From: Pseudomonadota bacterium | GTDB lineage: Bacteria; Desulfobacterota; Desulfarculia; Adiutricales; JAGVGV01 | Assembly (NCBI GenBank): GCA_018830135.1 | Contig: JAHJTB010000007.1 | Span: forward strand, 1-13,248 | Direction of reading: 5' to 3' | Length of the DNA: 13,248 nt | Shown: one piece after another, positions 1 through 5,253 of the stretch | How positions within the stretch are numbered: the stretch's first letter is position 1 | Layout of the letters: every line of letters starts with the position of its first letter | Position numbers and translations under genes: made by a program | Notes under the pieces: generated by a model | Database searches by the model: none | Seen by the model: the letters and a program-made list of their open reading frames with translations, nothing else | Told to the model about the DNA's origin: nothing

Positions 1-96
1 CACCTCGTAGTCGTCCCCCAGGGTTTCCACGAGGATGTCCACATTGGCCTCCGTGTCATCCACGACCATGACAATGCATTCGGAAAAATCACGCAT
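1..96 (-). CDS. Response regulator, N-terminal fragment of the receiver domain (continues beyond the left edge)
   Basis: Not in the ORF track because it is truncated. The minus-strand frame from ATG at 96-94 reads [32 protein letters not shown] with no stop down to position 1. A hydrophobic beta-1 strand followed by a DD acidic pair and the N-x3-L helix is the classical REC N-terminus (PleD/RpfG-like flavour). The start overlaps the HK1 stop (89-91) by 8 nt, and GAAAGG lies about 8 nt upstream. An alternative start is ATG 69-67. Only 32 codons are visible, so the output domain is unknown. Confidence 0.6.
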
Positions 97-2389
97 ACCC
101 ACCGCCTTTCAGTTTATCTCTCAGGGTTTCCAGGATGGCCTGGGCCTCCTTGAACTTGTATTTACCGATGAATTTATTCAAATCGCCCGCCTCGTCCCGC
201 AGGCCCTCCGGCCAGCCCGAAGCGGCGATCCGGTCCATGATCGGTTGGCACAGCTTGGGCTTGCGCTTGAGAATGTGGGGTTCCAGCTCGTCTAGCATGG
301 CCAGCAGGGCTTCCGGGGCCGCCAGGCCTCGGGCAGACGCATCCTCGGCGCCCGGCCCGCGGGCCGGGGCCAGGGCGGCCAGGGAGACCAGGAGTCGATC
401 CAGAGTTTCGGCAAAGGGCGGCAAGGCGGCCCGGGCCCCGGCCTCGTCCTCATGCTTGACGGCCGCCTCCACGACCGCCGCCGCCGCCTGCATCTCCAGG
501 GCGCCGATGTTTCCGGCCACGCCCTTGACCGTATGGGCCAGGCGCTGGGCCAGTTCCCGGTCGCCCGAATCCAGGGCTGTCTCGATCTCGGCGGATGCCC
601 GGGGGTAATCCTCATAAAATTTGACCAGCAGCTTGCGGAACAGCTTCTTGTTTCCGCCCACCCGTTTCAGGCCGTCCGCCGTGTCGATGCCGGGCAGGTC
701 AGGGATATCGGCCTCGTCCTCTTTCTCTTCGTCCGGCTTCGAAGGCATGGCGTCTTGCGGCAGTTCACGTTCCCCGGGCTCGATCCATTTGAGCAGGGTC
801 TGGAAGAGCTCGACCGTGTCGATGGGCTTGCTGACGTGGTCGTTCATGCCCGCCGCGACCGCATCTTCCTTGTCCCGGGTCATGGCGCTGGCGGTCATGG
901 CGATGATGGGCAGGCCGGCGAACCTCGGGTCTTTCCGGATTGCCTTCGTGGCCTGGTACCCGTCCATGACCGGCATTTGCACGTCCATGAGCACGACGTC
1001 GAATTTCCGGCGCTCGACCGCCTCCACCCCTTCGCGGCCATTGTTGGCAATGGTCACCACCAGGCCGGCCCCTTCCAGAATCTCCCGGGCCACCTGCTGG
1101 TTGATCTCGTTGTCCTCGACCAGCAGAATTTGGGCGCCCCGGATCGGTCGGGCCATGTCCGCTTCCCGATCCTTCTTCGGCCTGACCAGTTTTTCAAGTC
1201 CCGCTTTTCCGAAAGCCCGCATGATGGCGTCGAGCAGGCTGGAGTGGGAGACCGGTTTGATGAGCAGTCCGTCCAGTCCGGCCCCTTGCGCGGCCTCCAT
1301 GGCCTCGTCCTGGGCGTACGCGGTGACCAGAATGATTCTGGGTTGTTTCGGCAGATTCGCCAGGCCGCGTATACGGCGGCTGGTTTCGATGCCGTCCAGG
1401 CCCGGCATCTGCCAGTCCGTCAGGACCAGGTCGTAGAGACGATCCGGCGGGGCGTTTTCAAGCCGGGCCACTCCATCCGCTCCGGAGGCGGCCTGATCCA
1501 CCTCGAACGAAAAGGACTCGAGCATTTCCTGGAATATCTCCCGGGCCGTCCGGCTGTCGTCGACGATCAGCACCCGCAACCGGAGCAGATATTCGGACAG
1601 CTTCGATCTTTCCACCACCCGGCCTTCGGCCACACCCAGCCTGGCCGTAAAGATGAACTCGCTCCCCACGCCGGGCTCGCTTTCCACCCATATTTCACCG
1701 CCCATCATTTCCACCAGACGCTTGCTGATGGTCAGCCCGAGCCCGGTCCCGCCATACTTGCGCGTCGTGGACGTGTCGGCCTGGGAAAAAGCCTGAAACA
1801 GCCTGCCCCGCTGCTCCTCGGTCATGCCGATGCCCGAGTCCTGGACGGAAAAGCGGATGGACGCCGAATCATCGGCTCGTTCCATCAATCCGGCCTTGAC
1901 CACGATCTCGCCACGCTCGGTGAACTTGACCGCGTTGTTGCCCAAATTGATCAGAACCTGGCTCAAGCGCAACGCGTCGCCCACCAGGAAGCGTGGTATC
2001 CGGGGATCAACGCGGAACAGCACCTCCAGGCGTTCCTTTTCCTGGGCCTTGACCGTGATCATGTTGGCCACGTTGGCCAGGGTCTCGCTCAAGTCGAAGT
2101 CCACGTTCTCCATATCCAGCTTGCCGGCCTCGATCTTGGAGAAGTCCAGGATGTCGTTGATGATTCCCAGCAAAGACTTGGCGGACACCTCGATCTTCCT
2201 CAGGTAGTCGTGCTGCTTGGGGTCGAGGTCGGTCTTGAGGGCCAGGTGGGACATGCCGATGATCGCGTTCATGGGCGTCCGGATCTCATGGCTCATGTTG
2301 GCCAGGAATTCGCTCTTGGCCTGGGTGGCCGCTACAGCATCTTTTTTCGCTTCGTCCAGGTCTTCCAGGATATTCAACATGGCTCGACG
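89..2389. repeat. Copy 1 of a ~2.3-kb diverged direct duplication (transmitter module of HK1)
   Basis: Collinear with 5666-7960 at both nucleotide and protein level, with no indels except a 2-codon difference at the extreme 3' end. It includes a 59-nt perfectly identical run (165-223 = 5735-5793). Similarity stops at the stop codon on one side and at the RRAMLNI helix (aa 183) on the other. Confidence 0.9.
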
Positions 2390-2935
2390 GGTTTTTTCCA
2401 GGTCATCGAGCTGCGTCTGGATTGACACGGCCGCGCTTTCCGCGGCTTGTCTGGCCATCCTGGCTTCCTCGGCCAGAACCGTCAGCTCCTCGTTCTTTTT
2501 TTTCTGGTCGCGCAACAGCTCGTCCCGCGTAGGCTGGGTCAATAAATGCTTTCGGGCTTCAATAAACCGGGGTGAAAATGATAATGGCGCATCACTGATA
2601 TACCGGAAAGCCGAGATTGTCATCGACGTGCCACTGGAGTGGTCTGGTTCAAGAAAATCAAAAAATCGCTCCGCGCTTCGGGGCGGCCGGACGGTCCGCG
2701 CGTAGGCAAAATCCATCCGCAGCCCGGATCGGCCGTTTTTCCTTTCAACGCGGAAAGCGATATCGACGCCTGCTTCCTTATCGAGTCCGCAGCGCACCAG
2801 TTCCGAAAATATCACGGTCAGCCGGGTCGCGTGGATGGGGTCGTATCCCAGGGCCTGCGTAAGTTCAAGGACTTTGCGCCTGGCAGTCGTCAAGGATTGC
2901 GGCGCATCGACCTTCAGACGACCAAACTCGATCAT
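89..2935 (-). CDS. Hybrid sensor histidine kinase HK1: RsbT-like degenerate N-terminal domain, coiled coil, HisKA, HATPase_c, REC, REC, HPt, C-terminal tail
   Basis: 948-aa ORF. ATG 2935-2933 overlaps the upstream phosphatase stop in an ATGA (2932-2935). Landmarks read from the translation: H-box SHEIRTPMN (His216, nt 2288-2290); N-box [10 protein letters not shown]; G1 DSGIGM; G2 GGTGLGL. REC1 has DD459/460, Asp507 in LVLTDWQMP (nt 1415-1417) and Lys560. REC2 has ED607/608, Asp651 in VVLMDVQMP (nt 983-985) and Lys703. HPt is [12 protein letters not shown] (His801, nt 533-535). No TM segment is seen, so the protein is predicted cytoplasmic. Confidence 0.95.
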
Positions 2936-3959: not shown

Positions 3960-4376
3960 TTACTCCGAATCCGACTCTTCAATATCTTGCTCAAGGTCTT
4001 CCTCGAACCGGACGGGGTTGATTAATTCCATCGCATCATTCAAGGTCACGGCCGTGTCGATGCTATCAAGATCGACATCCAGGTCCACCAGGGCGGAGGC
4101 CAAACCTGCCCCAAAACCGGTGAATATGACCTTGGGCCCTAACAGCCTTACCATTTTCGAGATGCCGGCCAAAAGGCCGAAAAGAGCCGCATCGATGATT
4201 TTTACGCTGGAAACATCGATCAGCACACCCTTGACCGGAGCGGTCTCAATTTTCTCCAGCATTTCTTTTTGCAGCAGCCGCAAGGAAGCTTCATCCGGCT
4301 CTGCGTTGAGCGTGACAACGAGGTTCCGATGAACCACGTTCATCCCGGCCCCGGAATTGGAGTAATCTTCAGACAT
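3960..4376 (-). CDS. rsbS: RsbS-like single-domain STAS protein (stressosome scaffold/antagonist), with an acidic C-terminal tail
   Basis: The STAS core NLVVTLNAEPDEASLRLLQKEMLEKIETAPVKGVLIDVSSVKIIDAALFGLLAGISKMVRLLGPKVIFTGFGAGLASALVDLD aligns without gaps to B. subtilis RsbS (...[51 protein letters not shown]). The start is uncertain. ATG 4376 (GGAAGG 11 nt upstream) is chosen here. The ORF is open up to GTG 4436 (no SD), and ATG 4343 would give a 127-aa product closest to RsbS in length. Confidence 0.85.
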   Translation of the reverse strand: MSEDYSNSGAGMNVVHRNLVVTLNAEPDEASLRLLQKEMLEKIETAPVKGVLIDVSSVKIIDAALFGLLAGISKMVRLLGPKVIFTGFGAGLASALVDLDVDLDSIDTAVTLNDAMELINPVRFEEDLEQDIEESDSE

Positions 4377-4443
4377 TATCGAAGGGACCTTCCAGGATAT
4401 GGAACCAACATTTACCTTTATCCTTTCATGGACCACCGGGTCG

Positions 4444-5253
4444 CTATTTTTTCTGCTTCACTTCATAGTTCAGCAAAGCGAACGCGTCGATCAGGGCGTC
4501 TTCAAGGGTGGAATTTGTGGTCACGGTCCCCAGATCGATACCCAGTTGGACCAGGGTCTGGGCCACGGCGGACGAGATGCCGGAAATGATGCAGCGGCAG
4601 CCCATCAGTTTGGTCGCTTTGGTGATCTTTATCAGATGATTGGCCACGGCCGTATCCACGGCCGCGACGCCCTGGATATCCATGATGATGACCTTGGAGG
4701 ACGTTTCCGTTATCTTTTCCAGCATGGCGTTCATCATTTGTTGGGCGCGCAGGGAATCGACAACGCCGACGACCGGGAGCACGATGATCCTGTCCCAAAG
4801 CTTGATGGCCGGTGTGGATATCTCCATAATGGTCCGACTCTGATCCCTCAGCTTCTGCTCGTAGCGAACCCGTTCCGAAATATCGATGACGTACTCCAGC
4901 CCGCCGATAATCTCCCCCGTTTTGCCCATCAGCGGGGCCGCCGTATATTCAATGGGAATTGTTCTGCCGTCAATGTTCAATTCATTACGCCCGGTGTACC
5001 CCTGACCGGTGTCCATGGCCTGCACCATCAAGCATTCCGGTGTCTGACAATGTGCTGAATTCAGAAGCGAGTGACAGGTCCGGCCTTCAATTTTATCCCA
5101 CGTTTTCCCCAGGACTTCACGACCCGCGGCGTTCATGAAAATGATTTCGAAATCGCGGTTCACAGCCATGACCGGTGTTGGAATCTGCTCGAGAACAGAC
5201 AGCGCGATCTCATGGTCAACATGGAACATGTTTTTGCCTTCTTGATCAATCAC
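4444..5253 (-). CDS. rsbR: RsbR-like stressosome sensor: N-terminal PAS domain (Cys/His-rich) plus C-terminal STAS domain
   Basis: 269-aa ORF with GTG start at 5253, preceded by a strong SD AAGGGGGA 6 nt upstream. The C-terminal half (ISTPAIKLWDRIIVLPVVGVVDSLRAQQ...IQGVAAVDTAVANHLIK...CIISGISSAVAQTLVQLGIDL) is collinear with the B. subtilis RsbRA STAS domain. It includes the two phospho-acceptor positions (Ser167 corresponding to T171, Thr201 corresponding to T205). The N-terminal ~125 aa read as a PAS fold (IPTPVMAVNRDFEIIFMNAAGREVLG...IPIEYTAAPL...GEIIGGLEYVIDISER), not the globin-like domain of RsbRA. Confidence 0.9.
   Translation of the reverse strand: MIDQEGKNMFHVDHEIALSVLEQIPTPVMAVNRDFEIIFMNAAGREVLGKTWDKIEGRTCHSLLNSAHCQTPECLMVQAMDTGQGYTGRNELNIDGRTIPIEYTAAPLMGKTGEIIGGLEYVIDISERVRYEQKLRDQSRTIMEISTPAIKLWDRIIVLPVVGVVDSLRAQQMMNAMLEKITETSSKVIIMDIQGVAAVDTAVANHLIKITKATKLMGCRCIISGISSAVAQTLVQLGIDLGTVTTNSTLEDALIDAFALLNYEVKQKK

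Follow-up and report, generated by a model that had tools for sequence, protein, structure and literature searches.

We describe a Vibrio-type stressosome locus without sigma-B in which a degenerate copy of the kinase RsbT is probably what joins the stressosome to its output enzyme. The locus lies on the minus strand of a 13,248-nucleotide stretch of DNA from a Pseudomonadota bacterium (GenBank assembly GCA_018830135.1, contig JAHJTB010000007.1, positions 1 to 13,248; this whole stretch is called the window here), where the stressosome genes rsbR, rsbS, rsbT and rsbX are followed directly by genes for a hybrid histidine kinase, HK1, and a response regulator. Judged by its predicted fold and its sequence, the N-terminal domain of HK1 is a non-catalytic RsbT paralogue, termed the pseudo-RsbT domain below, and we consider it likely that this domain replaces RsbU_N as the adaptor between stressosome and output. 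The domain is the new part of the locus; the arrangement of rsbRSTX with two-component genes was already known.

Modules of rsbRSTX beside genes for two-component proteins or for cyclic di-GMP (c-di-GMP) turnover form an established comparative-genomics class with eleven downstream architectures (Heinz et al. 2022, PMC9237108), and stressosome modules without sigma-B have been known as widespread from comparative genomics since 2005 (Pané-Farré 2005, as cited in Heinz et al. 2022, PMC9237108). Most of the outputs, that of Vibrio vulnificus included, carry no RsbU_N, and the mechanism of their coupling is given as unknown (Heinz et al. 2022, PMC9237108). A linker-rigidification mechanism has been proposed for RsbU_N-bearing outputs only, some histidine kinases among them (Baral et al. 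2025, PMC12143880). An initial annotation of the window, made from the sequence, had stated that such loci are known without an established mechanism, in agreement with both papers.

The N-terminal domain of HK1

Searches with the HK1 N-terminus (residues 1-209, or a family profile) returned nothing meaningful from Pfam (E<=10), NCBIfam or the sequences in the PDB, the stretch without any profile match being residues 1 to ~165. By exhaustive phmmer search over 1.84 billion cluster representatives, the family of this domain counts at least 91 representatives at E<=1e-3, with 20 of them at E<=1e-10; with few exceptions the matching stretch starts within the first ~35 residues, usually at residue 1. 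The exhaustive search was needed to reveal the family, since a word-index search for homologues came back empty when queried with one sequence and gave only 2 proteins when queried with the profile; tblastn of the domain against plasmids found none, and the Vibrio members described below were reached through matches to RsbT. What follows the domain varies: HisKA in 62 of 92 cases, a SpoIIE-type PP2C phosphatase in 9, an adenylate/guanylate cyclase in 3, GGDEF in 2 and HD_5 in 1, with PAS-V4R and PP2C-HATPase_c_2 among the other fusion partners. An alignment of 35 N-domains (A2) contains two invariant residues, E45 and F92, together with a near-invariant set made up of R19, K21, R38, S44, R48, D93, S/T136, R137 and L140. 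These sequences show that the HK1 N-domain is a member of a genuine family, nearly always placed N-terminally.

With A2 as the input alignment, AlphaFold2 models the domain at a pLDDT of 91.7 and a pTM of 0.84, in the topology beta-alpha-alpha-beta-beta-alpha-beta-beta followed by two C-terminal helices. The 16 best Foldseek matches of this model in the PDB are all SpoIIAB, RsbW or UsfX (E 7e-5 to 2e-3, probability 1.00, TM score normalised to the target <=0.82), and ordinary histidine-kinase CA domains rank far lower. Profile alignment of A2 with the seven RsbTs of the same operons gave an hhalign probability of 96.1% (E 3.1e-9, 90 columns), pairing ATRLATIFSEL of the N-domain with IATAVSELATN of RsbT, FFD with MDEF, and AFKY with ARKW. 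Exactly where RsbT has its G1 box and ATP lid, the N-domain shows a gap of 18 residues. A motif census found the G1, G2 and N-box patterns in 2, 3 and 6 of the 35 N-domains, versus all three in 7/7 RsbTs, and the HK1 domain itself carries no ATP-binding motif, lacking the N-box Asn, G1 and G2. Taken together, the fold, the homology to RsbT and the lost ATP motifs identify the domain as a degenerate, non-catalytic RsbT paralogue with a GHKL fold. It shares the fold of the kinases SpoIIAB, RsbW and RsbT, and with RsbT also sequence homology, but it differs from them in lacking the N-box Asn, G1, G2 and ATP lid, and in being fused N-terminally to enzymes rather than acting as a free kinase.

In a single-sequence AlphaFold2 model of residues 1-205, the last C-terminal helix of the domain runs unbroken from residue 137 to residue 204, with pLDDT >90 from residue 140. 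An N-terminal adaptor, a coiled-coil linker and a dimeric effector are likewise the parts of outputs that carry RsbU_N, including RsbU_N-histidine kinase fusions and Moorella MtG (PMC12143880; Quin et al. 2012, cited there), and RsbU_N, like the pseudo-RsbT domain, is exchangeable among PP2C, histidine kinase and GGDEF outputs encoded beside stressosome genes. We also considered whether the HK1 domain could be RsbU_N, and rejected this: there is no Pfam RsbU_N match at E<=10, and the predicted structure, an alpha/beta fold, resembles that of GHKL kinases. RsbU_N, an all-helical bundle, is a different domain from this alpha/beta, GHKL-like RsbT homologue. No description of a domain of this type was found in Pfam, NCBIfam or the open-access literature, in a search that was not exhaustive.

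Genomic association and the HK2 paralogue

Family members with enough flanking DNA make up 12 clear independent loci, and in ten of these R-S-T-X lies immediately upstream of the N-domain gene (11 of 13 if a divergent one is counted), across five output classes. Since the same order recurs in at least ten independent loci, the gene arrangement is not a product of chance. The output encoded directly after rsbX (L numbers are our locus labels) is a hybrid histidine kinase in the window and its twin contig L001, and in L004, there with a REC-HD-GYP protein; a PP2C phosphatase in L006; a GGDEF protein in L007; a histidine kinase with Hpt and REC-GGDEF in L008; histidine kinases in L009 and L010, both from Desulfobacterales/deltaproteobacterial metagenome-assembled genomes (MAGs); a cyclase in L011/L012; and PP2C-HATPase_c_2 in L013/L014. 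A locus scan with a single protein returned only two loci, both from Desulfobacterales/deltaproteobacterial MAGs. The design also occurs in a cultured organism: on a 1.3-Mb replicon of Vibrio aquimaris THAF100 (L018), R-S-T-X directly precedes a 913-aa histidine kinase whose N-domain matches the family with a hidden Markov model E-value of 6e-28 and an hhalign probability of 99.3%. A more divergent kinase, with the layout N-domain-PAS-histidine kinase, follows rsbX in Vibrio sp. THAF191d (L017); its first 139 residues match the family at 95.5% (E 1.4e-8), and PAS is also a domain reported in the V. vulnificus kinase D1 (Heinz et al. 2022, PMC9237108).

The described loci of V. vulnificus and V. 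brasiliensis (rsbRSTX with the hybrid kinase D1 and D2; PMC9237108, PMC4976288) are the closest published parallels in several respects. As in the window, rsbX directly follows rsbT, a two-component protein is encoded a few bases downstream, and RsbU, RsbV, RsbW and sigma-B are missing; the V. vulnificus RsbR linker and STAS domain are also the nearest to those of the window (E 7.6e-46, for RsbR residues 122-265 against 7o0i_B). The differences lie in the sensor of RsbR, which is a globin in those loci and PAS in the window, and in two further features of the window, namely an RsbS without the phospho-Ser and a regulator output of REC and HD-GYP. Compared by description, the published V. vulnificus D1 has no recognisable coupling domain, whereas HK1 carries the pseudo-RsbT domain, as does the kinase after rsbX in the cultured V. 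aquimaris. A plasmid of Phaeobacter inhibens (NZ_CP010624.1, L019) resembles the window in having R, S and T followed by effectors that start with RsbT-like domains: at L019 6989-9167, these are a 337-aa RsbT-like::PP2C fusion and an RsbT-like::kinase of ~386-415 aa, both annotated only as 'ATP-binding protein'. The Phaeobacter RsbT-like domains retain G1 and G2, and the H-box of the kinase, HHRTGNN, resembles the HisKA_2/HWE type by eye. To judge from these sequences, Phaeobacter seems to have a related design in which the RsbT-like domain has not degenerated.

A natural comparison is provided by a second hybrid kinase in the window, HK2, which lies 2.7 kb upstream with no rsb genes in front of it. 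The two proteins share 84% identity over the part that starts at HK1 residue 168 and extends to the C-terminus, and their DNA is 86.8% identical over 2.3 kb, a stretch that opens in the signalling helix and closes with the stop codon (window 102-2389 versus 5673-7960). This is a similarity that points to recent duplication or gene conversion. The boundary of the similarity falls inside the long helix, at residue ~168 by BLASTP and ~183 by blastn (window 2389). The swap point, in the signalling helix, precedes the His of the H-box by 30-45 residues. The N-terminus of HK2 is unrelated to that of HK1 and consists of an unknown domain and HAMP (residues 1-133). HK2 can be regarded as a natural domain-swap control, in which the transmitter of HK1 is combined with another input; as the two kinases are distinguished solely by their N-terminal modules, it is this module that marks the rsb-linked kinase. 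No regulator of its own follows HK2, and the REC-HD-GYP regulator is therefore probably shared by the two kinases.

The stressosome core, the output and the neighbouring genes

The ORF table places eight genes and the start of a ninth on the minus strand of the window (Table 1). Six of them, from rsbR to the regulator, are packed with small gaps or overlaps, as the initial annotation had reported, and re-reading the sequence gave the same positions and junctions. The GTG start of rsbR is preceded by AAGGGGGA, and the gene ends with TAG at 4446-4444. The start of rsbS is ambiguous, since the longest ORF begins at GTG 4436 and yields 158 aa and ATG 4376 yields 138 aa; the shorter form agrees better with the aligned orthologs and with the gene called on L001. 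The stop of rsbS, TAA at 3962-3960, is separated by 24 nt from rsbT, and the next two junctions are ATGA overlaps, shared by rsbT and rsbX at 3522-3519 and by rsbX and HK1 at 2935-2932; an alternative rsbX start one codon downstream, chosen by the gene caller, gives 195 aa. Finally, the HK1 stop (91-89) and the regulator ATG (96-94) produce an overlap of 8 nt. These stop/start overlaps argue for co-expression and suggest translational coupling of rsbX with HK1 and of HK1 with the regulator. The promoter of the rsb-HK1 unit probably lies in the region 5' of rsbR; two sigma-70-like matches in it are weak and not above shuffled expectation.

Table 1. Features of the window (minus-strand positions; limits of individual HK1 domains are approximate).
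Feature	Position	Strand	Description or basis
Response regulator, first 32 codons	1..96	minus	full gene, 373 aa, on L001 13153-14274
HK1	89..2935	minus	HisKA-HATPase_c-REC-REC-Hpt hybrid kinase
HK1 transmitter and relay	89..2320	minus	Pfam
HK1 HPt	389-631	minus	
HK1 REC2	797-1129	minus	
HK1 REC1	~1211-1582	minus	
HK1 HATPase_c	1637-1981	minus	
HK1 HisKA	2123-2320	minus	
HK1 residues 137-205, long predicted helix, N-domain to DHp	2321..2527	minus	AlphaFold2
HK1 residues 1-145, predicted pseudo-RsbT domain	2501..2935	minus	AlphaFold2, Foldseek, hhalign, motif census
rsbX	2932..3522	minus	single-domain PP2C phosphatase, 195-196 aa
rsbT	3519..3935	minus	GHKL serine kinase, 138 aa, start GTG 3935
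rsbS	3960..4376	minus	STAS-only protein, start ATG 4376, 138 aa
rsbR	4444..5253	minus	N-terminal PAS sensor, linker and C-terminal STAS, 269 aa
Intergenic region 5' of rsbR	5254..5665	minus	412 bp, lower GC (composition)
HK2	5666..8410	minus	HK1 paralogue with different N-terminal input
V4R-domain protein	8416..8943	minus	Pfam V4R 1e-15
1416-aa membrane sensor	8959..13209	minus	Pfam Peripla_BP, 2x SBP_bac_3, PAS, PocR, PAS

Pfam assigns the four small proteins to the classes set beforehand as the test of a stressosome module: RsbR to PAS_4 (9e-18) and STAS (1.2e-14), RsbS to STAS (7e-8, with homology to B. subtilis RsbS 6jhk at E 2e-13), RsbT to HATPase_c_2 (2.6e-13) and RsbX to SpoIIE/PP2C (5.8e-11). 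Aligned with its V. vulnificus and Listeria counterparts, RsbR retains both canonical Thr phospho-sites (VDT and TTN), and RsbT, aligned with 6 orthologs, has an intact N-box (SELATN), G1 (DSGPG) and G2 (GLGLP). RsbS departs from this pattern: in alignments with the B. subtilis (6jhk), Listeria (6qcm) and Moorella (2vy9) proteins, Ala63 of the 138-aa form (codon 4188-4190) occupies the canonical phospho-Ser position, the serine of ...IDS... that is S59, S56 and S58, respectively. Ser or Thr is kept there in the aligned orthologs from six related loci, and the substitution is on this evidence lineage-specific and no family trait; for the same reason we discarded the idea that it is a hallmark of stressosomes coupled through pseudo-RsbT domains. 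A separate peculiarity of RsbS is its acidic C-terminus (window 3960-4020). A strongly acidic tail of 15-40 residues is present in RsbS of the window, L004, L006, L008, L009 and L010 and missing in B. subtilis RsbS and L007; it could contact the conserved basic residues R19, K21, R38 and R48 of the pseudo-RsbT domain.

Downstream of its N-domain and helix, HK1 is a hybrid kinase by Pfam (HisKA 4e-23, HATPase_c 9e-30, two REC 2e-53, Hpt 4e-11), with the H-box SHEIRTP at His216 and the HATPase N/G1/F/G2 motifs, receiver Asp residues and HPt His all read in the translation. By NCBIfam it is BarA/TorS/ArcB-like yet under every equivalog cut-off, and so no ortholog of a named kinase. RsbT, RsbX and the HK1 transmitter bear the motifs expected of active enzymes. 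The output domain of the regulator, to be sought leftward of the window according to the initial annotation, is found on L001 (ENA ERZ27247117 k141_323115, a 31-kb metagenome contig 99.98% identical to the window over the full window length), where the complete 373-aa protein is REC plus HD-GYP, as in RpfG-like regulators, with the motifs HDIGK ... HHEKWDGSGYP. Since the regulator is of this type, the predicted output is c-di-GMP hydrolysis by an HD-GYP phosphodiesterase. Beyond the regulator, L001 14271-18269 encodes REC-HisKA-HATPase-REC-Hpt (638 aa), REC (125 aa) and REC-HisKA-HATPase-REC (521 aa), and with these further genes of the operon the stressosome stands at the head of a phosphorelay of several kinases, not of a plain two-component pair. 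L001 carries the RsbT sequence without change; the exact HK1 sequence is not on record, with 3 single-nucleotide differences from that twin contig. The closest protein relatives come from Desulfamplus, Desulfobacterales, 'delta proteobacterium' and Candidatus Electrothrix MAGs, and an uncultured Desulfobacterales-like bacterium is accordingly the most likely source of the locus.

Neither RsbU_N, an RsbV/RsbW pair nor a sigma factor was found in the window (by Pfam) or in the 19.7 kb of L001 that were read. The locus therefore shares with the B. subtilis RsbRST-RsbU-RsbV-RsbW-SigB cascade the stressosome core and the feedback phosphatase, and differs in lacking RsbU, RsbV, RsbW and the sigma factor, in having rsbX directly after rsbT, and in leading through a phosphorelay to a c-di-GMP phosphodiesterase. 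The central proposal of the initial annotation, a stressosome joined to a REC-REC-HPt hybrid kinase and response regulator after rsbX in place of a sigma-B cascade, is supported by these domain assignments and by the lack of the cascade genes. Its description of the module as fully intact has to be qualified for RsbS, with Ala at the phospho-Ser position, and for the regulator, of which the window contains only 32 codons. It had missed the pseudo-RsbT domain, the HD-GYP output, the altered RsbS and the paralogue HK2.

Upstream of HK2, the V4R protein is the likely sensor partner of the HAMP input of HK2, judging by gene order. Pairs of V4R and HK2-N-like proteins recur in L004 (12088-16299), L011 (1405-2888) and L015 (7492-9470), with phmmer E-values of 1e-35 to 2e-55 for the HK2 N-terminus, the HK2-N-like protein being encoded directly after V4R and bearing as output a hybrid kinase, a SpoIIE PP2C or, inside an rsb operon, a STAS protein. 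V4R sensor and HAMP receiver look like a second exchangeable input module made of two proteins. The 1416-aa membrane sensor (Peripla_BP_4, 2x SBP_bac_3, PAS, PocR, PAS) has no recognisable output domain and contains the motif ERFNRLxxGRExxxIxLKxxINxL twice, at residues 952 and 1378. Homologs are encoded at L004 1368-5702, L009 2-613, L010 3637-5682 and L006 8370-12365, directly upstream of or overlapping rsbR in three loci and, in a fourth, after the N-domain PP2C gene. Such a sensor may feed the stressosome, for example through a PAS-PAS contact with RsbR.

Models of coupling

Our case for the pseudo-RsbT domain as a stressosome-output adaptor is built on its homology to RsbT, its dead ATP site, its fusion to five output classes and its adjacency to rsbRSTX, and HK2, which has the same transmitter with another input and no rsb linkage, supports the N-domain as the coupling element. 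In the mechanism we envision, PAS-bearing RsbR and RsbS would form the STAS core, RsbT would act as an active serine/threonine kinase and RsbX as the resetting phosphatase, while HK1 would relay phosphate to the REC-HD-GYP regulator. The pseudo-RsbT domain sits where RsbU_N sits in RsbU, with one continuous helix leading from it to DHp. As to what the adaptor recognises, we lean, at somewhat less than an even chance, towards the STAS core itself: GHKL anti-sigma kinases bind STAS partners (SpoIIAB with SpoIIAA, RsbW with RsbV), and by analogy the pseudo-RsbT domain would bind the unphosphorylated STAS domains of RsbR and RsbS in competition with RsbT. RsbT would then 'write' the phosphorylation of the STAS domains, RsbX would 'erase' it and HK1 would 'read' it, with binding and release passing through the coiled-coil linker to toggle HK1 between kinase and phosphatase states; both the binding partner and the sign of this regulation are what we infer. 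Such reading of the core fits the Phaeobacter locus, where an RsbT-like domain is fused to an RsbX-like phosphatase whose substrates, if it is RsbX-like in action, would be STAS proteins. It also fits V. vulnificus, in which an interaction between VvRsbT and VvD1 was not detected and transient phosphorylation was proposed instead (Heinz et al. 2022, PMC9237108).

Several points weigh against this picture. Two orphan members of the family, L015/L016 (N-domain-PAS-V4R, L015 5758-7461) and L020 (N-domain-PAS...GGDEF, 2788-5955), have no rsb genes within their flanks; their partner may be a stressosome whose genes lie elsewhere in the genome, or a different protein. The ATP lid, which is part of the SpoIIAB-SpoIIAA interface, is deleted from the domain, and the STAS-binding surface may have been lost with it. 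The operon of the window retains an intact RsbT, the protein that serves as messenger in the Bacillus paradigm. Moreover, the S59A substitution in RsbS stops signalling in Bacillus, and with Ala63 a Bacillus-like phospho-control through RsbS cannot operate here; either the two conserved threonines of RsbR would have to take over this control, or RsbT would be held permanently by RsbS.

The role of RsbT as messenger could also be kept, in that RsbT released by stress would bind the pseudo-RsbT domains of an HK1 dimer, for example through a homotypic GHKL-type interface, rigidify the linker and activate autophosphorylation, so that the domain would do the work of RsbU_N. Heterodimerisation of paralogues is plausible, given that SpoIIAB and RsbW form homodimers. 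Every rsb locus of the set keeps an intact RsbT; the position of the domain, before a long helix, is exactly that of RsbU_N, and its output classes are those discussed for RsbU_N by Baral et al. (2025, PMC12143880). We regard this as the main rival, somewhat less likely than reading of the STAS core; against it, the RsbT-D1 interaction went undetected in V. vulnificus (Heinz et al. 2022, PMC9237108) and RsbS of the window has Ala at the very serine whose phosphorylation frees RsbT in Bacillus. Transient phosphorylation of HK1 by RsbT on Ser/Thr, with the N-domain as substrate or docking site, has been proposed for outputs without RsbU_N (Heinz et al. 2022, PMC9237108), Moorella MtG being summarised likewise (Jia et al. 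2016, PMC4976288), and near-invariant Ser/Thr do occur at N-domain positions 44 and 136. Yet the residue at 136 can be explained structurally, as part of a helix N-cap motif (S/T-x-x-E), Ser44 belongs to the helix matching the RsbT N-box, and a substrate with the fold of the kinase itself would be left unexplained, which makes this route improbable to us. The least credible account, with very little in its favour beyond the two orphan members, is one in which HK1 and the regulator are merely co-transcribed with rsbRSTX and the N-domain is a dimerisation module or a sensor of some ligand, leaving the locus an ordinary member of the known class of rsbRSTX beside two-component genes: the domain directly follows rsbX in ten of the twelve clear loci whatever the output enzyme, is homologous to RsbT itself, and is replaced by another input in HK2, the kinase with the same transmitter that is not rsb-linked.

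If reading of the STAS core by the pseudo-RsbT domain were to apply broadly, RsbT-derived pseudokinase adaptors would be the general missing link of stressosomes without sigma-B, Vibrio D1-type kinases included; they would dock histidine kinase, PP2C, GGDEF and cyclase outputs on the STAS core and read its phosphorylation, and RsbT would be a writer and not a diffusible messenger. We put this generalisation forward tentatively, as an idea with perhaps one chance in its favour for every two against. In V. vulnificus, the best-studied Gram-negative system, the connection between stressosome and kinase has gone unidentified, there being neither an RsbU_N nor a detectable RsbT-D1 interaction. The pseudo-RsbT domain offers a concrete, testable hypothesis for that connection, and the natural control HK2 together with the culturable V. 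aquimaris makes the test practical. The principle of exchangeable N-terminal inputs with coiled-coil linkers is extended to a new type of adaptor, and the evolution of a pseudokinase through duplication of a partner-switching kinase suggests a route by which bacterial signalling is rewired.

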